Notes: generated by a model not told the origin, from the letters alone. 36,662 nucleotides of DNA from an uncultured Acidobacterium sp. (GCA_964495855.1 CAZBYY010000002.1:1-36662); one strand, 5' to 3'; numbered from the stretch's first letter, positions 418 through 20,752 are shown. A program made the numbers and translations.

Positions 418-429
418 CGAAGTCTCCAG

Positions 430-1197: not shown

Positions 1198-1260
1198 GCC
1201 CCCGCCTACAGCAATTCGGTTGCCATCGCGATTTCGCTCGAAATGCGAAAAACAGGCCTG

Positions 1261-1314: not shown

Positions 1315-1357
1315 GGCGCGCGAGCGCATTTCCCCCTGAAACCGGGCGGAACAGATG

Positions 1358-1373: not shown

Positions 1374-1387
1374 CGACGAGGCCGCGA

Positions 1388-1564
1388 ATGCAGCAACTGA
1401 TCTTGAACTCGGTGTTGATTGCCGCCTTCGCGATTCCCGCGATGGTGTTGCGTGACAGCGGCGATGACGGCAACGCCGACTACGCGCGCGTCCTGCGCCG
1501 CGTCGTGATCTTCGCCGGCGTGTACGTGCCGCTGTTGCTGTTCGTTTATCCCAGGTTGTTTTAG
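1388..1564 (+). CDS. Hypothetical 58-aa two-helix membrane micro-protein
   Basis: MQQLILNSVLIAAFAIPAMVLRDSGDDGNADYARVLRRVVIFAGVYVPLLLFVYPRLF has two hydrophobic helices joined by an acidic loop. It ends 9 nt before the receiver gene. I recognise no family. The start is chosen at the internal ATG of track ORF 1355..1564. Confidence 0.35.
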   Translation: MQQLILNSVLIAAFAIPAMVLRDSGDDGNADYARVLRRVVIFAGVYVPLLLFVYPRLF

Positions 1565-1573
1565 GAGAGCCCC

Positions 1574-1978
1574 GTGACGAGTCCGATGAATCGACGTATC
1601 GCGCTGGTGGTGGACGACTCGCCCGACATGCGCATGCAGATGTCGGCGATCTGCCGCCGCGAAGGTCTCGACGTCGTGGAAGTGCGCGATGGTGAGACGG
1701 CGTTGACGGAAGCGCGTGAGCGCCGCCCCGACATCATTTGCCTCGACCTGATGTTGCCGACGCTGTCGGGATTCGAAGTGTGCGAGCGGCTGAAAGGCCA
1801 GCCGGAAACGGCCGACATCCCGGTGTTGATCGCGTCGGCCCGGTCGTATCCGCAGGATCGCGCCGAGGCCGAAATGGCCGGTGCCGATGCCTACGCGATG
1901 AAGCCGCTGGACGTGGATGCGTTTGCCACGCAGGTGCGCACGCTCCTGTGGCAGCGCAGGAAGGACGCGCGCGCGTGA
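1574..1978 (+). CDS. Single-domain response regulator (CheY-like receiver)
   Basis: The receiver signature is complete: ALVVDDSPD, phospho-acceptor context IICLDLMLP, VLIASA and AYAMKPLD. AGGAG lies at 1563-1567, upstream of GTG 1574. An alternative ATG start is at 1586. Confidence 0.9.
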   Translation: MTSPMNRRIALVVDDSPDMRMQMSAICRREGLDVVEVRDGETALTEARERRPDIICLDLMLPTLSGFEVCERLKGQPETADIPVLIASARSYPQDRAEAEMAGADAYAMKPLDVDAFATQVRTLLWQRRKDARA

Positions 1979-3471: not shown

Positions 3472-4946
3472 TGCGCACCGCCGATCGCATCGCGCCGGCG
3501 CTCGCGCTGGTCGCTCCAGCGACCGCGGCGTCGTGGGTGCTTGCGGCCGTCGGCGGCGGCGTGGCCGCCGCCGTGCCGACGATCGCTGTGGCCGCGCTGG
3601 CATTGGTGTTCGCGATGCCGATGCAATGGACGGCGCTGTCGATGCTGGGCGCCGCGTTGCTCGTCGACAATCCGGGCGAACGTCCCTCGGATGGCCGGTG
3701 GCAGTCGCCGCTCTTCGGTCCCGGCGAGTTCATTTACGAGAATCTGCACAAGCACACCGGCATCGACGCGCTGCGCTTTTCCGCCATCGAACTCGTGTTC
3801 GCGGTGTTGATCCTGATCGTGGTGGTGCGCAAGCTCCGGCGCGATCCGCTCGACGATCCGCGCGGCCTCGGCGCCTTGCCGAACCCGATGAAGCACGCGT
3901 TTGCCGGCTTCTTTGCCGTGATCGTCGGCCTCGAGATCTACGGTCTCGCGCGCGGCGGCGATTTCAAGAATTCACTCTGGCAGCTGCGCCAGATGTTCTG
4001 GCTGCCGGTGCTCGGCGTGTTGTTCGGCCACGCGATCAAGAGCCAGGCGGCGCGCCGGACGTTGCTGCGGCTGCTGCTCGCGGTCGCATTCGTGCGCTGT
4101 CTCTTCGGCGTCTACTTTTACGCTGCGATCGCGCGTCCCCAACAGATGGACATCGAGTACGCGATGACCCACTCCGACTCGATCCTCATCGTCGTCGCGG
4201 TGTTGATCGCCGTGACGATGCTCGTGGAGCGGCCGACGTGGCCGCACCTGGCGCTCAACGCGATCGTGCAGCCGGTGTATGCGGCCGGGTTGATCGTCAA
4301 CGACCGCCGCGTCGCCTACATCACGCTGGCCGCCGGCGTGCTGTCGCTGATCCTGCTCGGCCCCGCGCACCTCCGCGTGTGGACCCGCCGCGCGCTGCTC
4401 GTCGCGATTCCGCTGGGTCTGCTCTATTTGGCCGCCGGCTGGAACTCCAACGCCGCCATCTTCAAGCCGGTGCAGACGGTCCGCTCGCTGTCGTCGCGCG
4501 ACGATGCGTCGAGCCAGACGCGCGACATCGAGAACTACAACCTCACGCTGACGCTGAAGCGCAATCCCGTGTTCGGATCGGGCTTCGGCCACGAGTACGT
4601 CGAGTTCGTGCAGGCCAACCGCGTCGACCAGATCTTCGCGCAGTACCGCTACATCGCGCACAACGGCGTGTTGTGGGTGCTGTCGATTGCCGGGTGGTTG
4701 CCGTTCTCGCTGCTGTGGGCACTGTTTCCGACCGCCGTGCTGATGGCGCGGCGGGCCTACGACAGCAGCCGCGCGGCGATCGATCGCACGACGGCGTTTG
4801 CGGCGTTCGCCGCGGTGTTGTGTTTCGTCGTCCAGGCGTGGGCGGACATGGGCCTGCAAAGCTGGATGGGAACGCTGGTGTTGACGAGTCTGACGGGAGC
4901 GGCAGGGGCGCTGTGGACGGCGCGCGATGCCGAGGCGAGGGCGTGA
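3471..4946 (+). CDS. O-antigen ligase / Wzy-type polymerase family membrane protein
   Basis: ATG 3471 overlaps the upstream stop (TGATG). It is a multi-spanning membrane protein with a large loop and a Wzy_C-like block: NPVFGSGFGHEYVEFV...YRYIAHNGVLWVLSIAGWL. Confidence 0.7.
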   Translation: MRTADRIAPALALVAPATAASWVLAAVGGGVAAAVPTIAVAALALVFAMPMQWTALSMLGAALLVDNPGERPSDGRWQSPLFGPGEFIYENLHKHTGIDALRFSAIELVFAVLILIVVVRKLRRDPLDDPRGLGALPNPMKHAFAGFFAVIVGLEIYGLARGGDFKNSLWQLRQMFWLPVLGVLFGHAIKSQAARRTLLRLLLAVAFVRCLFGVYFYAAIARPQQMDIEYAMTHSDSILIVVAVLIAVTMLVERPTWPHLALNAIVQPVYAAGLIVNDRRVAYITLAAGVLSLILLGPAHLRVWTRRALLVAIPLGLLYLAAGWNSNAAIFKPVQTVRSLSSRDDASSQTRDIENYNLTLTLKRNPVFGSGFGHEYVEFVQANRVDQIFAQYRYIAHNGVLWVLSIAGWLPFSLLWALFPTAVLMARRAYDSSRAAIDRTTAFAAFAAVLCFVVQAWADMGLQSWMGTLVLTSLTGAAGALWTARDAEARA

Positions 4947-6130
4947 GCGTGGTGTCGATGGTGTTGGTAATGCTCGGAGTGGCGCCGCTGGCGATGGCCG
5001 CCTATTTGTTCATGTTGACGATGGCCTGGAAGCGGCCGCAGCCGATGCCGCGCCGCCACGAGGCGCGCCGCATCGTCGTCGTCGTGCCGGCGCACAACGA
5101 AGAGCTCGGTATCGCGGCGACTGTCCGCAGCCTGTTGGCGACTGATTACCCGCGCGATCGTCGACGCGTCGTGGTCGTGGCCGACAACTGCACCGACACG
5201 ACCGCGCTCGTGTCGCTTGCCGCCGGCGCCGAGGTGATCGTCAGGAATGATGCGGATCGGCGCGGCAAGGGATTCGCGCTGGCATTCGCGTTCGATCGAC
5301 TGCGCGAGCGCAACGACTGGGATGCGGTGGTGGTCGTCGACGCCGACAGCGACGTCACGCCGAACCTGCTCTGGTCATTCTCGGACCGGATCGCGATGGG
5401 GGAGCAAGCCGTTCAGGCGCTCTATCTTCCGCGTTGTGGAGAGGCCGCGGTCAGCGTGATCACCGACATTGCGTTTGCAGCGATCCACCTGGTGAGATCG
5501 GCGGCTCGCGAGCGGTTCGGCCTGTCGTGCGGGTTGCGCGGCAACGGCATGGCGTTTACGCGCGAGGTGCTCGCGCGCGTGCCGCACGAAGCGTTCTCGC
5601 GCACCGAGGATCTCGAGTTCGGGATCCAGCTGGGACTCTCCGGTATCCGCGTGGCGTTTGTGGGTGACGCCGTCGTGCGCGGCGACATGCCCGAAGCGTC
5701 GACCGCGGTCACGCAACAGCGCGAACGATGGATCGGCGGCCGGATTGAAATGGCGCGCCGTCACGCGGGCGGATTGATCCGTGAAGCGATGGGCCGCCGC
5801 AGCTGGATGCTCGCCGATCTCGCCGCCGACCTGATGGTGCCGCCCCTGTCGATCCTGGCTGCGATGCTCACGGCGGGAACGGCGATCGCTGCCGTCGTCG
5901 CCGCCAACGGTGATGGGGTTGCACCACTTGGAATCTGGGCCGCTGCGTTCGCGGCGCTGTTCGTGCACGTCGCTCACGCGGCGCGGCTGTCGGGCGCATC
6001 GCTGAGCCGGCTGCATCGCGCGGCGATCGCGCTGCCGGAATACGTGGCGCGCAAGTGCGCCATCGCAAGCCGCGCGCTGGTCACCGACGACCAGCGCTGG
6101 GTGCGCACGCCGCGCAAGGGAGAACTGTGA
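4943..6130 (+). CDS. Membrane-embedded family-2 glycosyltransferase, synthase-like (QxxRW type)
   Basis: GTG 4943 overlaps the upstream stop (GTGA). An N-terminal TM is followed by [49 protein letters not shown] and QRERW, with C-terminal TM helices. The upstream 470 codons of track ORF 3533..6130 are an off-frame shadow of the Wzy gene. Confidence 0.85.
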
Positions 6131-6684
6131 TGAAGAGCGGTCTGTGGGAAGACGCGCTGCACCTCGCCGCCGCGGCGCGCCTGGCGCGCACGCCGCGCAA
6201 CGCGTGGCGGATGATCCGCACCGACGCGTACTGGCTGCTGTTGCTGTTCCGGATGCGCAGCATCGTGCTGGCGTGGCGGATTCCGATCGTCAATCGCGTG
6301 CTGCGCATGATGCAGATGGTGTTTGGCGGCGTCGAGCTCGGCAACGACATCACGCTTGGCCGCGGCGTCTACTTCATTCATTCGCTCGGCACGGTGGTCG
6401 GCGGCACGGCGCGCATCGGTGATCGCGTGCGTTTCCTCGGGTGCAACACCGTGGGCACCGCGAGCGACAACGGCTACCCCGTGATCGAAGACGACGTGGA
6501 GATCGGCTGCGGCGCTCGCGTGCTCGGTCCCGTCCGTGTGGGCGCAGGCGCGGTGATCGGCGCCAACGCCGTGGTGTTGTCCGACGTGCCGGCCGGTGCC
6601 GTGGTCGTCGGCGCGCCGGCGCGCGTCGTGAAAATGCGTGCGACGCAACCGTCGCATTTGACCTTGTTGGAGAGTTCCCGATGA
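6130..6684 (+). CDS. Hexapeptide-repeat O-acetyltransferase (serine acetyltransferase/CysE-like, EPS-modifying type)
   Basis: ATG 6130 overlaps the upstream stop (TGATG). The left-handed beta-helix repeats are evident: [36 protein letters not shown]...[50 protein letters not shown]. Confidence 0.8.
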
Positions 6685-8276
6685 ATCCGATGGTGAGTGT
6701 GGTGATCGCGGCCCGCGGCCGCAGTGCGTCGGCCGCCAGGCTGCTGCGGCAGTTGTCGCAGCAGACGATTGGCGCCGATCGATTCGAAGTCGTGGTCGTC
6801 GACGATGGCTCGCCGGAACCGCTGGCGCCGCAGCTTGCGGTTCTCGACACGCCGTTTCCGCTGCGATGCGTGCGCATCGAGTGGAGCGGGCCGGCGGCGG
6901 CGCGTCATCATGGTGCCAGGCTGGCCACCGGCGATGTGCTCGTCTTCATCGACGACGACATGCAAGTGGCGCCGGAATTCCTGGCGGCGCACGTGCGGCA
7001 CCACGAGGAGCACCCGCGCACCGTCGTGCTCGGCCGCATCGATCCGGACGCGTCGATCGAAGAGATGCCACTGTTCGAGCGGTACCACGCGCGCCAGCTG
7101 GCGCGGTGGCAGGATGCGGTGGCCCGCGGGGCGCTGCGGCCGCGCGGCATGCATCTTTGCACCGGCAATGTCTCGATGCGCCGCCGCGATTACTTCGAGG
7201 TCGGCGGATTCAATTCGGCGCTGCAGCGCTCCGAGGACCGTGAGCTCGGCATCCGTCTCGAGGATGCTGGATGCCTGATCGTGTACGGTGCGGATGCGGT
7301 GTCGGTCCATTCGTCGGATCACACCGATCTCGAGAGATGGTTGTCGCGCGCCGACCTGTACGGCCGCATCGACCGCCGGATTGCGGACATGCATCCCGAT
7401 GCGGGTGCGCATCCGCTGAACTTCTGGCCGCTCATCCATCCGCTGTCGCGGCCGATCGTGGCACTGGTGCTCGTTGCTCCGGCGCTCGGCGGCGTGTTGT
7501 CGCGCGCGGCATTCCGGCTGGCGGCCGCGCTCGATCGCCTTGGCGCGGGATCGGCGGCGGTCACGAGCGCCGCGCTCGCGTACGCGCTGCAGTACTTCGC
7601 CGGCTATCGCGCGGCGTGCGGCAGCATCGCGCAGGTGCGCCGCGAGTGGCGCGCCGCGCGCGCGAATGGGGAGCGTGGCGCGTTGCATCGTTGCCTCGCC
7701 GCGATCCGTGCCGATCACAACATGATGCGGCACCACCGCCTGAAGTACCACGGTGACGTGATCCGTTCGGCGCGATTGCCGATCGATCTGGTCTCGAGGG
7801 TCGGGCTGCAGATGCTTGCGGTGTACCGCGTGATGCGGCTGTTTGCCGAGTGGCGCGTGCCGCTCGTGCCGCTCGTGCTGTCGCGGCTGATCCGGCATCT
7901 CTACGGCGCCGAGATCCATTGGAACGCGAAGATCGCGCCCGGCGTGTCGATCGTCCACGGCACGGGCCTCGTGCTCAGCCACGCTGCCGAGGTCGAACGC
8001 GGCTGCATCCTGTTCCAGAGCGTGACGCTCGGAGAAAGCATCGACGCCGAAACCGGCCGTATCGGCGCGCCGCGGCTGGCCGCCGGCGTGCACGTCGGCC
8101 CCGGCGCGACGCTCCTCGGACCGATCGAGATCGGCGCGTCGAGCAAGATCGCTGCTGGTGTGGTGTTGATGACGAGCGTGCCGCAGGGCACGCTGGTGAT
8201 GCCGCCGCAGCCGGTGATCAGCCGGAGGCGCGTGGGCGCGCCGCGCGCCGCGATGCGCGCCGCGTCAGCGGCCTGA
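6681..8276 (+). CDS. Fusion protein: N-terminal GT2 glycosyltransferase, hydrophobic linker, C-terminal CysE-like hexapeptide acetyltransferase
   Basis: ATG 6681 overlaps the upstream stop (ATGA). The GT2 blocks are [28 protein letters not shown] and EDRELGIRL. The hydrophobic segment is [15 protein letters not shown]. The acetyltransferase module is [31 protein letters not shown]...[40 protein letters not shown]. Confidence 0.8.
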
Positions 8277-9050
8277 CTCGTGCTTGCCGATCAGGTAGCC
8301 GCGCTCGACGCGCAAGGCGGCGAGAGTCGGCGCAAGCTGTTCGCGAATTGCGTCGAGGTGCGGACGCACGTTGATCGCCACACCGTCGCGCGCGGCATGT
8401 TCGATCGTGCGCGCGACGTCGGCGATCGCCACCGCGCCGAGCGTGGCCGCCCCCGCCTTCAAGGTGTGGGCCGCGCGCTCGACCTCGCCCGAAGCGCCGG
8501 CAGTGGTCATCGACTCGATGCGCGCGATCAGGTCCGGCGTGTTGGTTTCAAACAGGTCGATCAGCGATCCGATCAGATCCGTGCCTCGATCCGTCGACAA
8601 GCCGACCAGTTGGCGCATCGCGCGTTGATCGACACGGACGCCACCCTGGGCAGGAGCGCCAGGCGCCGCCGGACCAGGCGCGGGCTCGCGCGTCAACAGG
8701 CCGCGCATCGCCGATGCGAATTCGGCCGGATCAAACGGCTTGGTGTAAATGCCGGCGGCGCCGAGTTTCTGCAATCGCGCCACTTCATCAGGCATGGCTT
8801 TCGCGGTCAGGAACACGATCGGCGTCGTTGCCGTCTCCGGCCGCTGGCGCAAGGCCTCGAACACCGTCGGGCCGTCCATGTCCGGCATCATCACGTCGAG
8901 GACGATGGCGTCGAACGGCTGGGAGGCGGCGAGCCGTAGCGCCTCGCTGCCGTTGGCCGCTTCGACGACCTCGAAGCCCGCCAGCTGCCGCAGCGACAAT
9001 CGCGCCACCGTGCGCGCGTCGATTTCATCGTCTACAAGAAGTATCTTCAC
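8265..9050 (-). CDS. Response-regulator receiver fused to a histidine phosphotransfer (Hpt) domain
   Basis: From GTG 9050 (alternative GTG 9059) the product starts VKILLVDDEID. Receiver motifs are AIVLDVMMPDMDG, IVFLTAK and IYTKPFD. A Pro/Ala linker is followed by the Hpt motif RAAHTLKAGAATLGA. The N-terminal 125 codons of track ORF 8265..9425 overlap the H-NOX gene and are rejected. Confidence 0.85.
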   Translation of the reverse strand: MKILLVDDEIDARTVARLSLRQLAGFEVVEAANGSEALRLAASQPFDAIVLDVMMPDMDGPTVFEALRQRPETATTPIVFLTAKAMPDEVARLQKLGAAGIYTKPFDPAEFASAMRGLLTREPAPGPAAPGAPAQGGVRVDQRAMRQLVGLSTDRGTDLIGSLIDLFETNTPDLIARIESMTTAGASGEVERAAHTLKAGAATLGAVAIADVARTIEHAARDGVAINVRPHLDAIREQLAPTLAALRVERGYLIGKHESGR

Positions 9051-9086
9051 TGCCGTCACTCGGGTGTGAAAGGTAGGATAAGTCAG

Positions 9087-9644
9087 ATGTACGGTCTGGT
9101 AAACCGTGCCATCGAACAGATGGTGCGATCGGAACACGGCGACGAGACGTGGCAGCGCATCAAGGAGCGCGCCGGCGTGACGGTCGAAGTGTTCATCAGC
9201 ATGGACAGCTATCCCGATGCGACTTCGTACGCGCTGGTCGGCGCGGCCAGCGAGATCCTCGGGCAGCCCGCCGATGCCCTGCTGGAGGCGTTCGGCGAGT
9301 ACTGGACGCTCTACACAGCGGAGCAGGGATACGGGGACCTGTTTCGGAAGGGCGGCACGTCGTTTCCGAGCTTCATGCAGAACCTGCATTCGCTCCACAC
9401 GAACGTGGGCCACTTGTTTCCGCACCTGCAGCCGCCCTCGTTCTGGTGCACGGATGTGACCAGCACGTCGATGCGCTTACACTACCAGTCGACCCGACAC
9501 GGGTTTACCCCGATGGTCGTGGGTCTCGTGCGCGGCCTTGGCCGCATGTTCGACACCGACGTCACGATCACCGTCGAACGCACGCGCGAACACGGCGCGC
9601 CGCATGACGAATTCCTGATCGAGTATCGCGCGCGTACTGCCTGA
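9087..9644 (+). CDS. Stand-alone H-NOX (heme nitric oxide/oxygen binding) sensor protein
   Basis: MYGLVNRAIEQMVRSEHGDETWQRIKERAG is a canonical H-NOX N-terminus. The proximal His context is NLHSLHTNV (His104, nt 9396-9398). The heme-propionate motif Y-x-S-x-R is HYQSTR (Tyr133 at nt 9483). AGG-rich RBS aaaggtagga lies upstream. Confidence 0.9.
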   Translation: MYGLVNRAIEQMVRSEHGDETWQRIKERAGVTVEVFISMDSYPDATSYALVGAASEILGQPADALLEAFGEYWTLYTAEQGYGDLFRKGGTSFPSFMQNLHSLHTNVGHLFPHLQPPSFWCTDVTSTSMRLHYQSTRHGFTPMVVGLVRGLGRMFDTDVTITVERTREHGAPHDEFLIEYRARTA

Positions 9645-12085
9645 TGGCCGTCAGCCTCTCCTCCTCGTCGGTGAGCGATCTGTTCCCCTTCCACGTCGCG
9701 TGCGACGGGGAGCTGCGGATCGTCCAAGCCGGCAGGAACTGGCCGAGCGTCAGCCCGGCCGTCGCGGTTGGTGCACGCATGGACGAGTGCTTCGAGCTCG
9801 TGCGGCCGCACCTGCCGCTGGCGGTCGAGACCTTCCGCAAGCTGCGCGGCACGGCGATCACGCTCCGCTGCCGTTCGAACAACCTTCGGCTCAAGGGACA
9901 GATGATCGCCGCGGAGGGCAGCGGCCAGTGGCTGTTCGTCGGCAGTCCGGCGATCGGCAGCATCGACGACCTCGCGACGTTCGGACTCACGCTCGATCAG
10001 TGGCCGGCGCATGAATCGGCGCCTGATTTCCTGTTCGTGCTCCAGGCCAAGGACGCCGCACTCGCCGATGCGCGGGCGCTGTCGGAGCGGCTCGACTGGC
10101 AGCGGGCCGAGCTCGAGCGCGCGACGGCGGCGCTGTCGGACGCGATGGCCCAGCGCGAATCGGCGCGCAGCGCCGCCGCCAATCGCGAGGCCTGGATTCG
10201 GGCCGTGGTCGATTCCGCCCTCGATGCGGTGATCGCCATCGACAGGCATGGAGTGGTCACGCTGTGGAGCGCGCAGGCCGAAGCGATCTTCGGCTGGAGT
10301 TCGGCCGAGTCGATCGGCCGCCGGCTCGACGAATTGATCGTGCCGCCGCAATACCGAGAGGCGCATCGGATCGGGCTGGCGCGCTACCTGGACACGGGCG
10401 AGGCGCACGTGCTCAATCGCCGCATCGAGTTGCTCGCGCTGCGCAAGAGCGGCGAAGAATTTCCGGTCGAGCTCGCGATCGCGCCGATTGATGACCGCGG
10501 GCACCTCGGCTTCAGCGCGTTCGTCAGCGACATCACCACTCGCCGCAGCAGCGAGCAACTGCTCCACCTGCAGCGCACAGTACCGCAGATCCTGGCCGGG
10601 GCGGCCACGATACACGATGCGGCGCGGCCGCTCCTCGAGGTGGTGTGCCGCTCGATGGGATGGGACGCCGGCGCGCTCTGGCTTGAACCAACGCAGGGCG
10701 AGGCCGCGGAGTGCGTGGGCACGTGGACCGGCGACCGCCAGCTGGAGGCCTTTGCCGCCGCACTCCAATCGCAGGATGCAGACGCCGCCGTTGACGCCGT
10801 TCCGCTCGCCCTCGCTGTGCCGATTGTCACGTCGCACGGCCTGCCCGCATGGGGCGATCACGGTGGCGGCCGATCGATCGGCGCGATGCGCTTCTACTCG
10901 CGCCGCGCCGCGCCGGTCGCGACCGACGTGGTCGCCGCCCTCGCCGGTGTCGCGAGCCAGCTCGGCCAGTTCATCGAACGCAGCCGCGCCCAACAGGACA
11001 GCGCACAGGCCGCACAGCGTCTCCGCTCCGTCGTCGACAACATGCTCGAAGGGCTCGTGCTCGTCGATGATCAGTTGCGCATCGTCGAGGCCAACCCGGC
11101 GTTCGCGAAGATGTTTGGTTACGAGCCGTTCGACCTGGTCGGGCGCTCGATCATCGAGATGATGCCGGACCGTCCCGAGTACCGCGATCAGGAAAACCTG
11201 ACCATGATGTACCGGCAGTCGCTCGGGCGAGTGTCGGAACACGAGGGCCGGCGGCGCAACGGCGCGGAGTTCCCGATCCAGCTGCAGGTGTACGAAGTCA
11301 CCACCGCCGATGGCGTGTTGATCGCCGGTCACGTGCGCGACCTGTCGCAGGAACGGCAGGCCGATCGATTGAAGAAGCAGTTCGTCGCGTCGGTCAGTCA
11401 CGAACTGCGCACGCCGCTGACGGCGATTCGCGGCTCGCTTGGCCTGCTGGCGCTCGGCGCCCTTGGTCCGCTCGAAGATGAGGCGAGGGAAGTCGTGAAC
11501 ATGGCCGAGCGCAATACCACGCGCCTCGTCGGCATCATCAACGACCTGCTCGACATCGAGCGTTTGCAGGCCGGCATGTTCACGCTGAGCCGGGCGGCAT
11601 TTCCTATCGATCGTGCCATCACCCGCGCGCGTGAAGCGATCGCCGCCATTGCCAGCGAGCAGGACATCACCATTGTCGAACCGCAGAGCGGCATCGAGGC
11701 GTGGGGCGACGAGTCGCGTGTCGTGCAGGTGCTCGTCAACTTGATCGGCAATGCGATCAAGTTCTCGCCGCGCGGATCGAGCATCGAGATCCACGTGACG
11801 CAACGCAAATCGGAGATCCGCGTCCAGGTGCGCGACCACGGCCGGGGGATCCCCGAGGAAATGCTGGCCGTCGTGTTCGAGCCGTTCCGCCAGGTGGAAG
11901 CATCCGACGCTCGCACCAAGGGTGGATCCGGCGTCGGCCTGGCCATCTGCCGCGGCATCATCGAGCAGCACGGCGGCACGATCGGTGTCGACAGTCGTCT
12001 TGGCGACGGCGCGACGTTCTGGTTCACCCTGCCGTCGAAACCCATTTCCGCAGCCGCGGCGACAGCGCCGGCTGTAGTAGCCTGA
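9644..12085 (+). CDS. Sensor histidine kinase: HNOBA (H-NOX-associated) - coiled coil - PAS - GAF - PAS - HisKA - HATPase_c, no receiver
   Basis: ATG 9644 overlaps the H-NOX stop (TGATG). The N-terminus LFPFHVACDGELRIVQAG...LVRPH...LRLKGQMI...WLFVGSPAIGSIDDL..FGLTLDQWPAH closely parallels the H-NOXA/PAS-like domain of soluble guanylate cyclase. The H-box is SVSHELRTPLTAI, the N-box NLIGNAIKFSP, G1 DHGRGIP and G2 GGSGVGLAICRGI. Confidence 0.9.
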   Translation: MAVSLSSSSVSDLFPFHVACDGELRIVQAGRNWPSVSPAVAVGARMDECFELVRPHLPLAVETFRKLRGTAITLRCRSNNLRLKGQMIAAEGSGQWLFVGSPAIGSIDDLATFGLTLDQWPAHESAPDFLFVLQAKDAALADARALSERLDWQRAELERATAALSDAMAQRESARSAAANREAWIRAVVDSALDAVIAIDRHGVVTLWSAQAEAIFGWSSAESIGRRLDELIVPPQYREAHRIGLARYLDTGEAHVLNRRIELLALRKSGEEFPVELAIAPIDDRGHLGFSAFVSDITTRRSSEQLLHLQRTVPQILAGAATIHDAARPLLEVVCRSMGWDAGALWLEPTQGEAAECVGTWTGDRQLEAFAAALQSQDADAAVDAVPLALAVPIVTSHGLPAWGDHGGGRSIGAMRFYSRRAAPVATDVVAALAGVASQLGQFIERSRAQQDSAQAAQRLRSVVDNMLEGLVLVDDQLRIVEANPAFAKMFGYEPFDLVGRSIIEMMPDRPEYRDQENLTMMYRQSLGRVSEHEGRRRNGAEFPIQLQVYEVTTADGVLIAGHVRDLSQERQADRLKKQFVASVSHELRTPLTAIRGSLGLLALGALGPLEDEAREVVNMAERNTTRLVGIINDLLDIERLQAGMFTLSRAAFPIDRAITRAREAIAAIASEQDITIVEPQSGIEAWGDESRVVQVLVNLIGNAIKFSPRGSSIEIHVTQRKSEIRVQVRDHGRGIPEEMLAVVFEPFRQVEASDARTKGGSGVGLAICRGIIEQHGGTIGVDSRLGDGATFWFTLPSKPISAAAATAPAVVA

Positions 12086-12090
12086 GGCGC

Positions 12091-13469
<1,379 letters not shown>

Positions 13470-13476
<7 letters not shown>

Positions 13477-15209
13477 GACGTCGATCGCCAGTTGGCGACG
13501 AGCGTGACGGGAGCGGCGTGATCCTGCTGGGCAGGCACGTTGATCACGAATCGCCCGTCGCTCGACACGTCGTAGGCGCGGATGGATGCGCCCGCATCGA
13601 AGAGCCGCGTCAATGAGCGCACGTCCGATCCATTGATCACCGCCGCATGCATCTCGCTGCCGCGGCGGAAGTAGAGTTCCCGGCCGTCGTGGCTCCAGCG
13701 CGGCTCGGTTCCACCCGCGGTGGTCACGCGCATGCGCGCCCCCGGTTTCGGAAACGTGTCCACGTAAATGTCGAACTGCCCTGACTCATCGGACGCGTAG
13801 GCGAGCGTGCGGCCATCCGGCGAGATCGCGCCGTAGACCTGGTTGAACGCGCCGGTGAAGTAGGGGCGTGCGTGTTCGCCCTCGACGGGAGGCTGCAGCC
13901 ACAAATCGTCGCCGGTGTCTGCGTTGCGACGCCCGATGACGAGCGTGTTGCCATCGCGAGACCAATCCCAGACCTGCAACGGCGCATCGAACGTCGCGAT
14001 CGTTTGCTCGGGCAACACCGCCCCGGCGCCGCGAATCATCACCTTGCTGCGTTGTGCCGCCCACGCGATCCGCAATCCATCTGGTGACCACACGCCGCTC
14101 TCGTCCGCATCCGTCGAAAGCGAGAGGCGTGTCGGCGCCGGCTGGGTTGGCGTGCGAATGACGACATCGAGCGTCCGAAACTGGCGGTCGACCTCGGTGA
14201 CGACGAGTCGACGTCCGTCGGGGGCGATGCGCAGGTCCCACGCGTCGAGGGGCTCGCTCGCCCAGCCATCGAGCGTGCCTTCTCGGGTCACACGTTTCAA
14301 CTGCCGCAGCATCGTGGAAGGGGCGCCGTAGATCAGCGCATCCGCCGACACGGTTGCGAAGATCTGGCCGAGCGGGCCTCGGCCGACCCGCAGTGCGGCC
14401 ACGCGAGCGGTGCCCGTGGGCTCGAGCGTCGCCGGATCAATCCGCTGCGCCATCAGTGCGAGATCCTTCAGGTAGAACATCGTCTCGCCCCAGACGAGGG
14501 CTTGTGAATCCGTGCCGGCGATCCTCCGACGCGTCGATGGCTCCGCAAGGGAGGCGATCCACACACCCGCGCGCGATGCCTCTGACGCCGTCACCAGAAA
14601 CAGGACGTGTACGCCGTCCGAAAGAAACGCCGGCCACGCATGCGCGATCTCGCCGTTGGCGCGATCGACGGTGGTCAGCGGCGTGATCGATCCATCCGGC
14701 GCCCGATGCATCAGCCCACTGTTGGCGTTCGGCGCAAAGACCATGTCGCCGGCGGCGTTCCACGCGCCGCCGCGACCCGACGGTGCCTCGGCGACGTCAC
14801 TCACGTGGCCGCCCGACAGGTCGATGGTTTTCAGGCGATTCTCGGTGAAGTAGCCAACACGCGATCCATCCGCGGACCAGAACGGCGCCGCGGCGCCGTC
14901 GGTTCCTGCGACCATTCGCGACTCGCCCCGGCGAAGGTCCTCCAGCCACAGCGCGACCAGGCCGTCCTGCGCTGCCGGATAGACGAGCTTCCGACCATCC
15001 GGCGCCAGCGCAAGTCCAAAGGGATAGTCACCGCCGCTGCCGACGTTCACTGAGTCTGGGGGAGACCACTTGCTCTGCAGTGGTTCAGGTGGGCGCGGCG
15101 GCGGTGGTGGCTGTTCCCGCCAATGGCGGATCGCCGGCACCGCCAGCGCGGCTGCCAGCGCAAGCGCAACGACGGCGAGAGTTGATCGATTGCGCATCTG
15201 TTGGGCCAT
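13470..15209 (-). CDS. Membrane-anchored TolB-like beta-propeller (PD40/WD40-like repeat) protein
   Basis: The N-terminal anchor is STLAVVALALAAALAVPAI, followed by a Pro-rich linker PPPPPRPPEP. Repeated PD40-type motifs follow: APDGRKLVY, WSADGSRVGY, IAPDGRRLVV, WSPDGLRIAW, ISPDGTLAY-like and WSHDGRELYF. The start is taken at ATG 15209; the track start is 15230. Confidence 0.75.
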
Positions 15210-15287
15210 GACCGCATCGCGAGGTCGCAACGGCCCCGCCGACTCGAATGGTATCCTGTCCCTCAGTCCTTCAGGAGGTTACTGCGA

Positions 15288-15842
15288 ATGCGCACACGTC
15301 TTCTCGCCGCGATCGTGACGATCCTGGCCGTTGCTGCACCCGGCGCCACGGCGGCGTTTGCGCAAGCGGCTGCGCCCTCGCGACGTCCCGACGTGATCTA
15401 CGTGCCGACCCCACAGCCCGTCGTCGAGGCGATGTTGCAGGTGGCCAACGTGACCAGCAAGGACGTGGTCTACGATCTCGGCTGCGGTGACGGTCGCATT
15501 CCGGTGACGGCGGCCCGCAAGTACGGCGCGCACGGCGTCTGCTTCGACATCGATCCGGAGCGCATCAAGGAAGCCACGGCCAACGTGGCCACCAACAACG
15601 TCGGCAACCTCGTGAAGGTCGTGCAAGGCGACCTGTTCGAGCAGGACCTGAGCGGCGCGTCGGTCGTCACGCTCTACCTGCTGCCGTCGCTCAACGTGAA
15701 GCTGATGCCGAAGCTGATGAAGGAATTGAAGCCCGGCACGCGCATCGTGTCGCACGCGTTCGACATGGGCGACTGGAAGCCCGAGAAGGAACTCGACGTC
15801 GAGGGCCGCAAGGTTTACTACTGGACCATCCCGAAGAAGTAG
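15288..15842 (+). CDS. Class I SAM-dependent methyltransferase with an N-terminal signal peptide
   Basis: AGGAGG lies 8 nt upstream of ATG 15288. The signal peptide is MRTRLLAAIVTILAVAAPGATAAFA/QA. SAM motif I is VVYDLGCGDGRI, followed by the acidic post-I residue in CFDIDP. Confidence 0.8.
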   Translation: MRTRLLAAIVTILAVAAPGATAAFAQAAAPSRRPDVIYVPTPQPVVEAMLQVANVTSKDVVYDLGCGDGRIPVTAARKYGAHGVCFDIDPERIKEATANVATNNVGNLVKVVQGDLFEQDLSGASVVTLYLLPSLNVKLMPKLMKELKPGTRIVSHAFDMGDWKPEKELDVEGRKVYYWTIPKK

Positions 15843-15909
15843 GCACGAGGCCGCGGCACTGACTCGACGCGCCTTCCTGTCTCTCGCTGCGGTCCTGGCC
15901 GCAGGCGCC

Positions 15910-17550
15910 TTGCTGCTCGCTGCCAGCGGCGGGTTTCGCACCACCGTTGGCGGCATCCGTCTTTCAGCGCGGTCGCCCGTTCCCGTCGCCGCCGTAGCCG
16001 TCGCCTACGGCGCTGCGTGGTTGGCCGCCGCGCGCAGACGCAACGCGGTTGCGAGCGATCTCGAATGGGCGTGGGCCGCGACCGAGCGCCGGTCGCGGGT
16101 GATCATCATCACCATCACGCTCAGTAGCGCCTTGCTGTCCGCGGTGTTCGAGACGAGGTCGGCTGCCGGCGCCGACGCGTCGGGCTACCTCAGCGAAGCG
16201 GCGATGCTGGCGCGTGGCGAGCTCTTTCATCAGGATGATCTCTTCGAGATCGTCGCCGGCCACGATCCCTTCCTCACCTCGCCGCTTGGGTGGCGGCCGT
16301 CGCCGGGTGGCGCGCGCCAATCGCCGACGTATCCGCCAGGGCTGCCGATGCTCATGGCCGTGCCGCACGCGATGGCCGGCATTGATGGCGCGTCGATCCT
16401 CGTCGTGGTGTCGGGGATGGTCGCCGTCGCTGCCACCGCGGCGATCGCCTTCCGTCTCGCGGGCGCAACCGCCGCGATCCTTGCCGCGATGCTGATCGCG
16501 TTCGCGCCGATCTTCATCCACCAGTCGATTCAACCGATGAGCGACGTGCCGGTCACCGCCGCGTGGATGCTGTGCTTCTTCTGCGCGATGACGAACCGCT
16601 CGCTCTCGGCCGGCGTCGCGTGCGCATTCGCGGTGTTGATTCGCCCCAACCTCGCGCCGCTGGCAATCGTGCCGCTCGTCGTCGTCGAGCGACGCGTCGC
16701 ATTCGCGATTCCCGTGGCGATCGCTGCGGCCGTGCTTGCTGCCCTGCAGTCCGCGTGGTACGGATCGCCCTTGCGGTCCGGCTATGGATCGACCGATGAA
16801 CTCTTCGCCTGGTCGAACATCGCGGGCAATGTTCCTCGCTACGCGTCGTGGTTTCTTTCGACGGCGCCGGCGCTGGCGATGGGCCTGCTGGGCAGCGTGC
16901 GACTCCGTACAAATCGCAGCGCCCAGGCCCTCGCCGTGTTTGCGGCGATGGTGATTGCCGCGTACCTCGTCTACGCCGTGTTCGATGACTGGTCGTACTT
17001 ACGATTCCTCCTGCCGGCGTTGGGCGCATTCGCGGTGCTGGCGGCAGTCGAATTGGCGGCGTGGATCGATCGATCGCCGATCGTGATGCGACCGCTGCTG
17101 CTGTTCGCCGTGGTCGCCGCGGTCACGACGCACGCGATGTGGTGGATGCAGCGCGCGGGCACCTTCGACCTGGCCGATCAACTTCGTCGCGTCTCCCAAG
17201 TGGCTGCCGTGATCAGTGATCGCACTCCAGCGCAGTCGGCCATCGTGTCGGGCGAGCAGAGCGGAGCGATGCGCTACTACACGCATCGGCCGATCATTCG
17301 ATGGGAGGCCGCCACGGCGTCGGCGTTGACCGATGCGGTCGCCTTCCTCCGCAAAACGAACCGTCCCGTTTTCGTCGTCCTCGATGCGTGGGAAGAAGGT
17401 CCCTTCCGCACCAAGCTCGGTGACGCACTGCCGTTGAACTGGCCTCCGATGCTCGACGCAGGAACGTCACACCGCACGCGGGTGTGGGCGCTCGCCGACC
17501 GCGATCGTTTTCGTAATGGCGAGCACGTCGACACCGTCCGAATCCCCTGA
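15910..17550 (+). CDS. GT-C fold integral-membrane glycosyltransferase (ArnT/PMT_2-like; family assignment tentative)
   Basis: It has about 12 hydrophobic segments. The first loop, ADASGYLSEAAMLARGE, resembles the D/E-x-x-x-Y-x-E-x-A-x-x-M loop of ArnT/PMT-like enzymes. A C-terminal soluble domain of about 120 aa follows. TTG 15910 is the first start in the frame, so the true start is uncertain. Confidence 0.5.
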   Translation: MLLAASGGFRTTVGGIRLSARSPVPVAAVAVAYGAAWLAAARRRNAVASDLEWAWAATERRSRVIIITITLSSALLSAVFETRSAAGADASGYLSEAAMLARGELFHQDDLFEIVAGHDPFLTSPLGWRPSPGGARQSPTYPPGLPMLMAVPHAMAGIDGASILVVVSGMVAVAATAAIAFRLAGATAAILAAMLIAFAPIFIHQSIQPMSDVPVTAAWMLCFFCAMTNRSLSAGVACAFAVLIRPNLAPLAIVPLVVVERRVAFAIPVAIAAAVLAALQSAWYGSPLRSGYGSTDELFAWSNIAGNVPRYASWFLSTAPALAMGLLGSVRLRTNRSAQALAVFAAMVIAAYLVYAVFDDWSYLRFLLPALGAFAVLAAVELAAWIDRSPIVMRPLLLFAVVAAVTTHAMWWMQRAGTFDLADQLRRVSQVAAVISDRTPAQSAIVSGEQSGAMRYYTHRPIIRWEAATASALTDAVAFLRKTNRPVFVVLDAWEEGPFRTKLGDALPLNWPPMLDAGTSHRTRVWALADRDRFRNGEHVDTVRIP

Positions 17551-17574
17551 CGACGGTCTACAATCGTCTTTCAA

Positions 17575-19728
17575 GTGCGAAAGTTCGATGTCGTAATGCT
17601 GCTCGCCATCCTGGCGTTGGCAGCCGGCCTGCGCGTGTGGGCGCCCTGGGACGATGTGTTGAGCGGCCCGCGCGTGAACTTCCTCGAAACCGACGCGTGG
17701 TATCACGTGCGTCTCGCCGAAAGCCAGGTGCGCAATTTCCCGTATCGCATCACGGTCGACCCGTACGTTGCGCCCGACGGCGAGTACGTGCCCGTCGCGC
17801 CGCTGCTCGATGCCACGATTGCGTCCGTCGCGTTCCTGACGAAGGGCCGTGACGCCTCAACCGACTACATCGAGCGTGTCGCCGCGTTCGTGCCGGCGAT
17901 CGCCGGCGTGTTGTCGGTGCTGGCGGTGTGGGCGCTGGCGACCATTGCCTTCGATCGCCGCGCGGGACTCATCGCCGGCCTGCTGGCCGCGATCCTGCCC
18001 GGGCATTTCCTCGATCGCACGTTGATCGGCTTCGTCGACCATCACGCGCTCGAAGTGTTGTTTTCGTTCGCGACACTGGCGTGCATCGCCTACGGCACGG
18101 CGATCGGCGCCGGTGTGTGCCTGGGCTTGTATTTGCTGACCTGGGCGAGCGGCGCGTACTTCGTCTTCATCCTTGCCGCGTGGGTCGTGCTCACCGCGAT
18201 CGTAGCGCCAAAGTATCGCGACACCGCGAACCGGTTCACGGCGATCACCGCAGCGGTCGCGCTGGCGATGGTGCTCGTGTTCCAGAACCCCGCGTTGTAC
18301 CGCTACAACACGCAGGTGGCGTCACTGGCCGGACTGCTGCTCCTCGCTGTTGCGTTGATGTACCTCGGCGGCCGCGTCGTTCGCGCGATGGGAGTGATCG
18401 CGCTCCTCGCGATCGCGTTCGTCGCCGTCGCCTGGCTGGTCACGCCGACGCTCGTGCAGCAGGTGATCGCGGATGTTGGCCGCTTCCGTCCAGACCCGTC
18501 CCGAATGGCCGTGCTCGAAGCGCGCCCGTTGTTCCTCTACTCGGGCAACTGGGATTGGCGGCAGCCGTGGATCTTCTTTCGCAGCGGTTTCTACGTGGGC
18601 ATCGTGGCTGTCATGGCCCTGGCTGTCTCCGCGCTGCGATCGAGGCGCGTCGATCACCCCCTGATCGTCAGCTTCACGATTGCGAATTACCTGTCGACGC
18701 TCGGCCAGAACCGGTTCGGCTACTACCTCGTGCCGTCCACGGCCGTGGTGATCGGATGGCTGGCGACCCAGGTGCTCGACTGGGGCGGCGTCCCGCACGC
18801 GGACAACCCCTCCCCGAAGATCCGTCCGCGCATTGTCTTCCAGCGCGAGATCGCGGTGATTGCGGTCGCCGGCCTCGCGATCGCGCCCAACATCGTCCCG
18901 GCGGCGATCACGACCACTCGTGTGGGTGGCATGCCCGACTACTGGTTCCAGGCGATGCAGTGGCTGCGCGCGCACACGCCGGAGCCGTTCGGATCGGCGG
19001 ATTACTACTACACGCATTACGGCACCGAGATCACGCGGGCGTCGTTCACCGTCATGAACTGGTGGGACCAGGGCTACTGGATCGCGCAAACGGCGAGACG
19101 CGTGCCGGTCAGCAACCCCACGCAGACCGGCGCCGATACGGCGGCCATGCTGCTCACCGCGACGGACGAAGGCGACGCGCTCGCCAGGCTGTCGGCTACG
19201 CGATCAAAGTATGTGATCGTCGATTTCGAGCTGCCGTTTCGCGAGCAGGCCGACGGCTCGCTCGCGGGCCGTTTTCAAAATCTCGCTGACTGGGCGCGCA
19301 TCCCCACCGAGAAGTTCTACCAATTGTGTTTCGCGCGCCGGAATGACGCCGAGCCGTGGCAGCCGACGTGGATCTACCGCGAGGCGTACTACAGGACGAT
19401 GGCGTATCGACTGATGGTGCTCGGCGGACAGGTTGCTGAACCCGTTAACAACACCTACGTCGTCGAAACGCGCGAGCGCGTGGATTCGACCGGCCGCCGC
19501 TTTTGCGAAGTGGCGAACCGCTGGCAATACGCGCGTCCCGAGGATGCGAAGACCACGGCCGCACAACGCGGCCGCAACTTCGAAGCGGTGGGACTCACGC
19601 CGTGGCAGCCCGCGTTCTCGGTACCTGCGATCACGCGTCTGAAAGTCGCGGCCGAGTTCCGTGATCCCGGACAGAAGGCGAACGAGACTCCGATGGTGAG
19701 GATCTTCGAAGTCACGGATTCGCGCTGA
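17575..19728 (+). CDS. Oligosaccharyltransferase of the STT3/AglB/PglB family (archaeal AglB-like)
   Basis: The N-terminal ~460 aa are multi-spanning membrane. Motifs appear in canonical order: FLETDAWYHVR (D40, nt 17692), GFVDHHALE (D155, nt 18037), MAVLEARP (E315, nt 18517) and NWWDQGYWI (nt 19060-19074, the WWDYG motif). These are followed by NPTQ and KYVIVDFE. The start is GTG 17575 or ATG 17596. Confidence 0.8.
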   Translation: MRKFDVVMLLAILALAAGLRVWAPWDDVLSGPRVNFLETDAWYHVRLAESQVRNFPYRITVDPYVAPDGEYVPVAPLLDATIASVAFLTKGRDASTDYIERVAAFVPAIAGVLSVLAVWALATIAFDRRAGLIAGLLAAILPGHFLDRTLIGFVDHHALEVLFSFATLACIAYGTAIGAGVCLGLYLLTWASGAYFVFILAAWVVLTAIVAPKYRDTANRFTAITAAVALAMVLVFQNPALYRYNTQVASLAGLLLLAVALMYLGGRVVRAMGVIALLAIAFVAVAWLVTPTLVQQVIADVGRFRPDPSRMAVLEARPLFLYSGNWDWRQPWIFFRSGFYVGIVAVMALAVSALRSRRVDHPLIVSFTIANYLSTLGQNRFGYYLVPSTAVVIGWLATQVLDWGGVPHADNPSPKIRPRIVFQREIAVIAVAGLAIAPNIVPAAITTTRVGGMPDYWFQAMQWLRAHTPEPFGSADYYYTHYGTEITRASFTVMNWWDQGYWIAQTARRVPVSNPTQTGADTAAMLLTATDEGDALARLSATRSKYVIVDFELPFREQADGSLAGRFQNLADWARIPTEKFYQLCFARRNDAEPWQPTWIYREAYYRTMAYRLMVLGGQVAEPVNNTYVVETRERVDSTGRRFCEVANRWQYARPEDAKTTAAQRGRNFEAVGLTPWQPAFSVPAITRLKVAAEFRDPGQKANETPMVRIFEVTDSR

Positions 19729-19858
19729 TCGTCGATCGATCACAAGAGGCGTGCGCTAGTCTCATGAGAACGTCTCGCGACCGGCGCCCGGGGGCAGCCA
19801 CCCCGCGATCCTGCTGTCCTGCTAGCCCGCGAGCGTGCGGGCCTGATAGCCTGTAAGC

Positions 19859-20752
19859 GTGAGGCTGTCCTCCTTCCAGCGTCTTGCGATCTGGACGACT
19901 GCGACCACCTATCTGCTGATCCTCGTCGGCGGACTCGTCCGCGCATCGGGCGCAGGACTCGGATGCCCCGACTGGCCGCGCTGTTTCGGATCGTGGATCC
20001 CGCCCTCGTCTGCCGCGGCCTTGCCGCCGCAGTTCGATCCGTCGCAGTTCAATCCAACGCTGATGTGGACGGAGTACCTCAATCGGCTGCTGGGCGTGAC
20101 GGTCGGGTTCCTGATCTTTGCGACCGCAGTCTCCGCCTGGCGTCATCACCGCCGGGAGCCGCGCATCCTGTGGACGACGATCGCCGCGTTCCTGCTCGTG
20201 GGGTACGAAGGTTGGCTTGGCGGCCGTGTCGTGGCGCACCAGCTGGCCCCGTGGATCGTCACGGCGCATCTGATCGTTGCCATCGTGATCGTGCAGCTGC
20301 TGCTGTATGCGACGTTCGTCGCCGGCGCGCCGCGTGCGACGCATGCGACGGGCGCCACGTGGGGGGCCACCGTCCTCATCGCCCTTACGCTGCTGCAGGC
20401 CGGCGTCGGCACGCAGGTGCGCGGTGACATCGATGACGCGGTCGCCGCCGGCACCGAACGCCTCCACGCGCTCGCGACCGTCGGCCGCACCGATGTTCTG
20501 CACCGCGATCTCGCCTTCATCGTGCTGATCGTGACGACCCTGGTGGTGTTGCGGCTGCTGTCGCGCAGGTCGCCGCTGGTTCGCTGGGGCGTGGCGATTC
20601 TGGCGCTGGTGCTGGGGCAGATTGCCATCGGCGTGTTCATGGCGTATGGTGCGCTGGTCCCGCCCGCGCAGGTGGCGCATTTGACGATGGCGAGCCTGCT
20701 GCTTGGAGCGGAGACCGTGTTATGGCTGCTTAGTTGGAGGCAAAGCACATGA
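19859..20752 (+). CDS. ctaA: Heme A synthase (COX15/CtaA family)
   Basis: It contains the GLGCPDWPRCFG motif, eight hydrophobic helices and conserved His residues in the helices (RHH, VAHQL/TAHLIV, LHRDL, VAHLT). The start is GTG 19859. Confidence 0.85.
   Translation: MRLSSFQRLAIWTTATTYLLILVGGLVRASGAGLGCPDWPRCFGSWIPPSSAAALPPQFDPSQFNPTLMWTEYLNRLLGVTVGFLIFATAVSAWRHHRREPRILWTTIAAFLLVGYEGWLGGRVVAHQLAPWIVTAHLIVAIVIVQLLLYATFVAGAPRATHATGATWGATVLIALTLLQAGVGTQVRGDIDDAVAAGTERLHALATVGRTDVLHRDLAFIVLIVTTLVVLRLLSRRSPLVRWGVAILALVLGQIAIGVFMAYGALVPPAQVAHLTMASLLLGAETVLWLLSWRQST

Follow-up and report, generated by a model that had tools for sequence, protein, structure and literature searches.

Here we describe three consecutive plus-strand genes at positions 15,288 to 19,728 of a 36,662-nucleotide (nt) stretch of DNA (GCA_964495855.1 CAZBYY010000002.1:1-36662; hereafter the window) from an uncultured Acidobacterium sp., which are predicted to encode an exported methyltransferase (gene 1), a GT-C fold membrane glycosyltransferase (gene 2), and an archaeal-type (AglB-type) oligosaccharyltransferase (OST; gene 3). 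We consider it somewhat probable that the OST, which appears intact, and its GT-C partner act together, with the link of the methyltransferase to them unproven. The trio hints at an undescribed bacterial protein-glycosylation system, although the three-gene unit proposed in an earlier note on the window was only partly upheld. Overall, we regard bacterial N-glycosylation of the archaeal type as a well-founded lead rather than a discovery.

The OST gene (17575..19728, +) encodes a 717-residue protein that, as judged from its sequence, is a catalytically intact, single-subunit enzyme of the AglB type. It matched the Pfam STT3 N-terminal domain (PF02516, 50.1 bits, cutoff 24.5) and the AglB core domain (PF22627, 69.9 bits, cutoff 27), and its best relative in the Protein Data Bank (PDB) was AglB-L of Archaeoglobus fulgidus (AfAglB-L; 3WAJ/5GMY, E 1e-51), with residues 9-554 of the OST aligning to residues 16-615 of the archaeal enzyme; the same search of all PDB sequences returned no PglB chain at E <= 1e-3. 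The AglB_L1 peripheral domain was not detected in the OST by Pfam, and no archaeosortase or exosortase match was found among the window proteins scanned. We found 501 homologues of the OST, with source names such as Vicinamibacterales and Acidobacteriota, and databases already label such proteins "STT3 domain-containing" or "oligosaccharyl transferase (archaeosortase A-associated)". The sequence likewise places the host in the order Vicinamibacterales (phylum Acidobacteriota). Some records of metagenome-assembled genomes (MAGs) that carry relatives of the OST are labelled Acidimicrobiia or Cyanobacteria, yet their synteny is identical.

Conservation of the OST was read from an alignment of 37 family members from genome loci (43-100% identity). 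The first external loop carries E38-T39-D40 (17686..17694, +), in which D40 corresponds to the catalytic D47 of AfAglB-L and is invariant in all 37 sequences, and position 38 is E or D throughout (D in one sequence only). Equally invariant (37/37) are D155-H156-H157 (18037..18045, +), which corresponds to the metal-binding D161/H163 of AfAglB-L; the glutamate of A-V-L-E315 in external loop 5 (18508..18519, +), which corresponds to the TIXE motif (T-I-A-E360); R380, the counterpart of R426; and W496-W497-D498-Q499-G500 (19060..19074, +), a variant of the sequon-binding WWDYG motif with Q in place of Y as its fourth residue. Because these motif residues are invariant across sequences of 43-100% identity, their invariance indicates purifying selection on what would be catalysis and the binding of Ser/Thr at sequon position +2. 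The DK/MI position, which the HMMER alignment did not reach, was aligned by eye and reads (L/I/V)-x-x-R566-x-x-x-(L/V/I)570.

Gene 2 (15859..17550, +; from 15910 if a TTG start is used) is, by its predicted structure, a GT-C fold enzyme of an unclassified family. Its Pfam scores were below cutoff for both PMT_2 (PF13231, 20.1 bits vs 26.1) and GT87 (PF09594, 18.4 vs 25), NCBIfam gave a weak match only, and a profile search with 35 sequences returned no PDB match; we do not assign it to GT83, GT39, or GT87. Nearly all homologues of gene 2 are annotated as "hypothetical protein" on Vicinamibacterales-type contigs, a minority of them carrying a precomputed PMT_2 or GT87 match, and the family appears to be confined to Vicinamibacterales. 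An AlphaFold2 model built from our alignment of the family (A1) had a mean predicted local distance difference test score of 86.3 and a predicted template modelling (TM) score of 0.86. When this model was compared with the PDB by Foldseek, all 24 matches at E <= 1e-3 were GT-C enzymes; the top match was ArnT (5EZM/5F15; E 5e-8, TM-score 0.55-0.56, sequence identity 13-14%), followed by STT3, PglB, AglB, ALG12, ALG9, AftA, and AftB. At the level of fold, these matches argue against the possibility, raised in the earlier note, that gene 2 encodes a non-glycosyltransferase membrane protein. An aspartate, D89 in the motif GADASGY (codon 16174-16176, +), follows the first long transmembrane helix and is invariant in 35/35 sequences of A1, in which the further invariant loops are QPMSDVPVTAAW, RPNL, and YGS...SGYG, and the protein carries a C-terminal soluble domain. 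From the order of helices and the positive-inside rule, the D89 loop would be external, so that both GT-C enzymes are predicted to hold conserved acidic residues in their first external loop, in keeping with the extracytoplasmic orientation first suggested for the pair.

That an AglB-type OST cooperates with a second GT-C enzyme is best supported by the recurrence of non-orthologous GT-C neighbours in other lineages. In an acidobacterial MAG (locus L038), an OST with the WWDQG motif (47% identity) lies in an unrelated genomic context, and a gene with a TMEM260-like match ends 6 nt before it; TMEM260 is a protein O-mannosyltransferase family. A second, divergent clade of bacterial AglB-like proteins was found in MAGs of Myxococcota, "Deltaproteobacteria", and Planctomycetota (L045-L054; e.g., L045 9902-12163 and L046 9905-12289). 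Most members scanned have the STT3, AglB core, and AglB_L1 domains (TIGR04154 344 bits), and the clade retains the first-loop Asp, GFVDHH, the loop 5 Glu, and the Arg, with WWDxG degenerated to xW(D/P/G/T)xGH. Genes with PMT_2 matches above the Pfam cutoff lie within 5 kb of the AglB-like gene in L045, L053, L046 (two such genes), and L054; L048 and L050 have weaker matches. Because hhalign found no match between the gene 2 family and the L045 PMT_2 partner, we take the GT-C partners in different lineages not to be orthologues. The presence of unrelated GT-C genes beside AglB-like genes in these lineages speaks for the earlier suggestion that the OST acts with a second GT-C enzyme.

A putative partner of another kind adjoins the OST in many relatives of the window. 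A gene of ~371 codons for a glycosylasparaginase homologue lies immediately upstream of the OST gene, divergently oriented, in 19 related loci (L014, where it spans 8819-9934 on the minus strand and was identified by its Asparaginase_2 and PDB matches, and L007, L008, L011, L013, L016-L019, L025, L029, L032, L034-L036, L039, and L041-L043), at an intergenic distance of ~60-150 nt in most of them. In L044, glycosylasparaginase fragments lie farther from the OST, and the homologue is absent from the window and its closest relatives. The protein carries a twin-arginine (Tat) signal and matches Pfam Asparaginase_2 (E 6e-53), and in the PDB it is closer to a Flavobacterium glycosylasparaginase (E 3e-51) than to isoaspartyl peptidases (1e-26). 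It has a Thr at the nucleophile position and an RxGD stretch, which we take to be the autoprocessing nucleophile and the substrate-binding element, respectively, of the glycosylasparaginase family. Glycosylasparaginases cleave the sugar-Asn bond of N-glycopeptides, and the position of this putative enzyme beside the OST suggests the turnover of Asn-linked glycans; alternatively, it might serve to scavenge plant or fungal glycopeptides.

Gene 1 (15288..15842, +) encodes a predicted class I S-adenosylmethionine (SAM)-dependent methyltransferase of 184 residues, with the catalytic domain at residues ~33-184. This domain matched Methyltransf_25 and PrmA in Pfam, scored 151.5 bits against the NCBIfam model for archaeal protein-lysine N-methyltransferases (NF041081; below the cutoff of 200), and from residue ~33 on aligned with 5BXY (E 3e-52) and Sulfolobus aKMT4 (5FA8/5JWJ, E ~1e-42) in the PDB; the GxGxG SAM-binding motif is retained. 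The N-terminus, MRTRLLAAIVTILAVAAPGATAAFA followed by Q (15288..15362, +), reads as a Sec-type signal peptide, residues 1-25 comprising a basic n-region, a hydrophobic core of ~20 residues, and an A-x-A site (A-F-A), and the ATG start at 15288 has a GGAGG 9 nt upstream. In an exhaustive search of 1.84 billion representative proteins, the family comprised 12,817 clusters at E <= 1e-3 and 1,238 at E <= 1e-30, and an N-terminal hydrophobic segment was present in at least 115 of the top 150 representatives under a strict hydrophobicity rule, many of the remainder being fragments or having weaker, lipoprotein-like or Tat-like signals. As the predicted signal is family-wide, we take the export signal of gene 1 to be genuine and a trait of the whole family. 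Together, the A-F-A site, the start fixed by GGAGG, and the family-wide signals support the extracytoplasmic location predicted earlier for this enzyme. Domain fusions were considered as a clue to function and set aside: longer family members mostly repeat the methyltransferase domain in tandem, commonly with 2-3 copies, and a single member joins it to a DNA/RNA non-specific endonuclease domain, of a type that is usually secreted; no fusion in the family included a GT-C domain. The phrase "periplasmic methyltransferase" was not found in the literature searched.

We also scanned metagenomes with a diverse alignment of the methyltransferase, which yielded 80 loci. The gene 2 family adjoins the methyltransferase in only four of these, the ones with >= 73% identity. 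Among the other neighbours, APC amino-acid permeases adjoin methyltransferase homologues in four unrelated metagenome loci with GC contents of 37-69% (L064 4526-5905, L075 4524-5909, L106 4486-5865, and L134 3487-4911); FTR1 iron permeases were confirmed by Pfam in L066 and L105, with neighbours of similar size in L083 and L093; and TldD/PmbA was confirmed in L081, with neighbours of similar size in L085, L092, and L101.

The conservation of the trio was assessed by a synteny scan with one genome per GTDB species, which gave 54 loci, 44 of them of the Vicinamibacterales type. The gene order in this lineage is PD40 (on the minus strand), methyltransferase, GT-C, OST, then, after a variable interval, CtaA, TPR, and DUF1684, and the order methyltransferase-GT-C-OST is retained even where OST identity is as low as 43%. 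Of the three, the methyltransferase is the best conserved (72-90% identity to Vicinamibacterales orthologues, compared with 35-61% for the GT-C protein and 43-73% for the OST). It is tightly paired with the GT-C gene throughout Vicinamibacterales, the gap between the two being 69-136 nt in nearly all loci, and the GT-C and OST genes are contiguous (0-210 nt) on the same strand in 11 of 31 loci, this genome included. Genes inserted within the region are mostly duplicated MacB/FtsX-type permeases (~23 copies across L003-L044), RND pumps, ABC transporters, and a DUF2062 protein. The permeases are large, with two MacB_PCD and two FtsX domains each (e.g., L055 7577-9973 and 12165-14618), and their insertion beside the OST explains most of the variation in gene spacing. 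We considered whether the genes inserted at the GT-C/OST and OST/CtaA positions might be missing pathway genes and rejected them, as most are permeases, pumps, and other transporters without an obvious link to glycosylation, the glycosylasparaginase excepted.

Mechanistically, we propose from what is known of the two families that the OST would take a preassembled glycan from a polyprenyl-phosphate carrier at the periplasmic face of the inner membrane and transfer it to the Asn of N-x-S/T sequons in exported proteins. Gene 2 would use a polyprenyl-phosphate-monosaccharide donor on the same membrane face. Most plausibly, it would extend the glycan by a sugar, either on the lipid carrier or after transfer, comparable to AglS of Haloferax volcanii, a dolichol-phosphate-mannose-dependent GT-C enzyme that completes the glycan with its final sugar once AglB has transferred it; less probably, it may glycosylate the same client proteins directly, in the manner of PMT enzymes. 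A role of the methyltransferase in glycosylation is unproven. A more far-reaching version would be a Vicinamibacterales pathway of archaeal descent, in which transfer by the OST is combined with finishing by the GT-C enzyme, recycling by the Tat-exported glycosylasparaginase, and periplasmic methylation of glycoproteins or glycans by the aKMT-like enzyme. We consider this version unlikely; if it were true, the methylation step would extend SAM-dependent methylation beyond the cytoplasm for the first time and give a function to a very large exported family.

Several observations weigh against our main reading, some concerning the OST itself and others the cohesion of the trio. The OST scored 375.9 bits against TIGR04154, the NCBIfam model of archaeosortase A-associated OSTs, and thus fell below the cutoff of 450; in the alignment by eye, its DK/MI position carries Arg in place of Lys and has no Asp; and conserved N-x-S/T sequons in neighbouring exported proteins showed no excess over a reversed-motif control, so that these proteins were rejected as candidate acceptors. 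Neither a priming phosphoglycosyltransferase nor a flippase was found in the window or the related loci. The GT-C and OST genes lie 1.2-9 kb apart in 20 of 31 loci, and because the genes between them are often on the opposite strand, the two are not on one transcript in many relatives. The GT-C gene is missing from four loci (L011, L021, L033, and L037), where the methyltransferase and OST are kept; in L021 (9426-12154), only 60 nt separate the methyltransferase stop from the OST start. In addition, synteny alone is weak functional evidence because the unrelated flanking genes (PD40, CtaA, TPR, and DUF1684) are as collinear as the trio. For the methyltransferase, we know of no source of SAM outside the cytoplasm, and neither a GT-C nor an OST gene was found near it in any of the 76 metagenome loci with <= 67% identity, i.e., those outside Vicinamibacterales, from which we conclude that the methyltransferase family as a whole is not a glycosylation component. 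Of the proposed module, the order kept in relatives and the tight spacing in this genome are supported, but the trio is not an obligatory unit; the three families co-occur in synteny across Vicinamibacterales, and the methyltransferase occurs without the other two outside that order.

A rival explanation, which we regard as possible but doubtful, is that the genes are neighbours by descent rather than a module. Here, the OST would act alone with its glycan genes elsewhere, and the methyltransferase and GT-C genes would form a separate envelope-modifying unit in a conserved stretch of chromosome, the GT-C enzyme serving, for example, in ArnT-like decoration of lipid A or lipopolysaccharide or in PMT-like O-glycosylation. 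The collinearity of the whole PD40-to-DUF1684 region, the inserted genes that part the GT-C gene from the OST gene in 20 of 31 loci, and the loss of the GT-C gene with retention of the OST in four loci, including L021, would all be expected under this explanation, which also accommodates the best structural match of the GT-C enzyme (ArnT modifies lipid A) and the occurrence of methyltransferase homologues elsewhere beside APC permeases, FTR1, and TldD/PmbA. It accounts less well for the proximity of the GT-C and OST genes (at most ~210 nt apart on the same strand) in this genome and ten others, and for the non-orthologous GT-C genes beside AglB-like genes in L038 and the Myxococcota/Planctomycetota clade. 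Such adjacency is unlikely to arise by chance, because GT-C genes probably make up a small share of a genome, a background frequency that we assume. We give little credence to the idea that the AglB-like protein does not glycosylate proteins at all, being either an enzyme with a non-protein acceptor or a non-catalytic relic. Although no acidobacterial glycoprotein was reported in the literature searched, the fourth WWDYG residue is Q, the DK position is R, and a related bacterial clade has a degenerated WWD motif, the metal-binding and catalytic residues and the WWD triad that would bind the +2 Ser/Thr are all invariant, and a glycosylasparaginase homologue adjoins the OST in 19 loci. That the methyltransferase is instead cytoplasmic, through a miscalled start or an uncleaved, inward-facing anchor, and is unrelated to periplasmic chemistry seems highly unlikely as well. 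This alternative would dispense with a SAM pool outside the cytoplasm, where none is known, and fit the cytoplasmic location of the closest characterized relatives (aKMT4, from general knowledge of the family), but the strong GGAGG at optimal spacing fixes the ATG, the N-terminus has the basic n-region, hydrophobic core, and A-F-A site of a signal peptide, and similar N-termini, lipoprotein-like and Tat-like variants and one endonuclease fusion among them, are found in at least 115 of 150 representatives. We retain as our preferred reading an OST acting with its GT-C partner.

In this genome, the open reading frame (ORF) listing and the GC content at third codon positions agree with the layout first described for the trio, i.e., three same-strand genes separated by gaps of 67 and 24 nt. 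The ORFs (15201/15288-15842, 15910-17550, and 17575-19728, all on the plus strand) have third-position GC contents of 0.81-0.86, typical for coding sequence in a window of 67% GC (64-70% throughout), and these gaps are those obtained with canonical start codons. The family assigned earlier to each gene also holds at the level of fold or superfamily, on the evidence of Pfam, NCBIfam, the PDB, and Foldseek. The first canonical start codon of gene 2 is TTG 15910, which gives 546 residues. The in-frame translation upstream of it, LTRRAFLSLAAVLAAGALLLAASGGFRTT, resembles the N-terminal transmembrane helix of full-length homologues, MNRRFLLFIAA...AVSGGFRTTVGG, and because of this match the probable start of gene 2 is CTG 15859, which follows a GAGG by 8 nt, lies 16 nt after the methyltransferase stop codon, and gives a product of 563 residues. 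The stretch 15859-15909 would add a transmembrane helix, bearing an RRxFL-like motif, to the N-terminus; this helix is missed when only ATG, GTG, and TTG are called as starts. The OST start, GTG 17575, is 24 nt after the gene 2 stop, and its N-terminus MRKFDVVM is kept in relatives.

The three genes of this genome are probably carried on one transcript that would begin upstream of 15288, because they lie on the same strand, the gaps between them are short (16 or 67 nt, and 24 nt), and the terminator-like sites are not in the gaps. Between 15000 and 20100, only two terminator-like sites were found, both within gene 2 and in total below the expectation from shuffling, with none in the intergenic gaps of the trio. 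The RNA structure or terminator potential of the gaps 17551-17574 and 19729-19858 did not exceed the stability of shuffled sequence, no promoter-like sites were found in 15000-20100, and no tRNA or Rfam matches were found in the window. A sigma-54 promoter 5' of the trio was considered, as an NtrC-type regulator is encoded nearby, and rejected, as none was found and such matches in the window are fewer than in shuffled sequence. The neighbours of the trio are a divergent PD40/TolB-like gene (13470-15230, minus strand; identified by Pfam and NCBIfam) and a sigma-54 response regulator gene on one side, and genes for CtaA (heme A synthase), a TPR protein, and a DUF1684 protein downstream. All are of families other than cytoplasmic glycosyltransferases, flippases, or sugar-nucleotide enzymes, none of which flank the trio, as had been observed earlier.

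For the glycan, the assembly genes must lie outside the window, and the adjacent exopolysaccharide (EPS) locus is not implicated. This Myxococcus-type locus (430-8276) contains EpsA-, EpsV-, Wzy-, EpsC-, and EpsD-like genes and a further GT2 gene (~4950-6130), and had been put forward, as the region 1-8276, as the only visible candidate source of the donor glycan. We rejected this candidate as unsupported: homologues of the window's EPS, H-NOX, kinase, and regulator genes were found within 10 kb of the OST in 0 of 54 related loci, so the adjacency is peculiar to this genome and lends no support to a donor role. The H-NOX (heme NO/O2-binding) gene, followed by genes for an HNOBA-PAS histidine kinase and an NtrC-type sigma-54 response regulator (9066-13476), lies between the EPS locus and the glycosylation genes. 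A sigma-54 promoter-like site with one mismatch (TGGCAACCGAATTGCT, 1210-1225, minus strand) is found just upstream of the EpsA-like gene, with the NtrC-type regulator nearby; sigma-54-like matches in the window are no commoner than in shuffled sequence.

To our knowledge, bacterial OST-dependent N-glycosylation has been documented experimentally only for PglB-type systems, in Campylobacterota and some Desulfobacterota. No paper linking an OST to Acidobacteria or describing this gene arrangement was found in the literature searched, nor anything relevant under "AglB-like" or "bacterial STT3". Bacterial Stt3 homologues, "a few" in number, were previously placed within the euryarchaeal clade, and at least two archaea-to-bacteria transfers of Stt3 were inferred (Lombard 2016, PMC4973528). 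A recent study of single-subunit bacterial OSTs names only PglB homologues, several of them from Desulfobacterota (Nat Commun 2025, PMC12229607). Newly noted here are the adjacency of AglB-like and GT-C genes in other bacteria, the divergent glycosylasparaginase gene in 19 relatives, and the finding that the EPS locus is not a conserved neighbour. An AglB-type enzyme that appears intact by sequence across a dominant order of soil bacteria would extend protein N-glycosylation to Acidobacteria and would represent a second, independently acquired lineage of bacterial OSTs. Such a lineage could serve glycoengineering, with no expectation of the acidic residue that PglB requires at sequon position -2. 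Beyond this order, our data point to a recurring pairing of an OST with a second GT-C enzyme in bacteria, and the very large family of exported SAM-type methyltransferases raises a biochemical question of its own.

Finally, we compared the trio with known systems. The only well-studied bacterial N-glycosylation system is PglB of Campylobacter with its pgl locus, to which the OST would be alike in reaction class (en bloc transfer by a single subunit to periplasmic Asn, from knowledge of the family). In contrast to PglB, the OST belongs to another phylum and matches AglB (1e-51) with no PglB at E <= 1e-3, and, unlike in the pgl locus, no pgl-type cytoplasmic glycosyltransferases, PglK flippase, or sugar-modifying genes adjoin it. 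It is closer to AfAglB-L (3WAJ/5GMY/7E9S), with which it shares the STT3-type and AglB core domains, the catalytic Asp, D-x-H, the loop 5 Glu, the Arg, and WWD; it differs from that enzyme and from TIGR04154 in being bacterial, in scoring below the cutoff, in its WWDQG motif and the Arg at the DK position, and in having no AglB_L1 domain by Pfam. Archaeal AglB differs further in its setting, as neither an archaeosortase nor an agl gene cluster was found near this OST.

The other proteins can be compared in the same way. Like ArnT (GT83; 5EZM/5F15) and PMT_2-type GT-C enzymes, gene 2 encodes a multi-pass membrane protein with a C-terminal soluble domain, and it has an invariant Asp in what would be its first external loop. 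Its identity to ArnT is 13-14%, its PMT_2 and GT87 scores are below cutoff, and its profile matched nothing in the PDB. Gene 1 is homologous to crenarchaeal aKMT4 (5FA8/5JWJ) and to 5BXY (annotated as "RNA methyltransferase") over the whole catalytic domain, with GxGxG conserved, and differs from aKMT4 in its predicted Sec-type signal peptide and a score below the NF041081 equivalog cutoff. The glycosylasparaginase homologue of the relatives resembles the Flavobacterium/Elizabethkingia enzyme (PDB 9GAF/1P4K; E 3e-51, with Thr and RxGD aligned), to which it adds a twin-arginine signal, an insertion of ~35 residues, and the OST as neighbour. For the pair at the centre of our reading, the nearest parallel is AglB and AglS of Haloferax: although in many relatives of this locus the GT-C and OST genes are not co-transcribed, the two systems, likened here by arrangement, would each have an OST and another GT-C enzyme acting on the external side of the membrane, with both genes in one neighbourhood.

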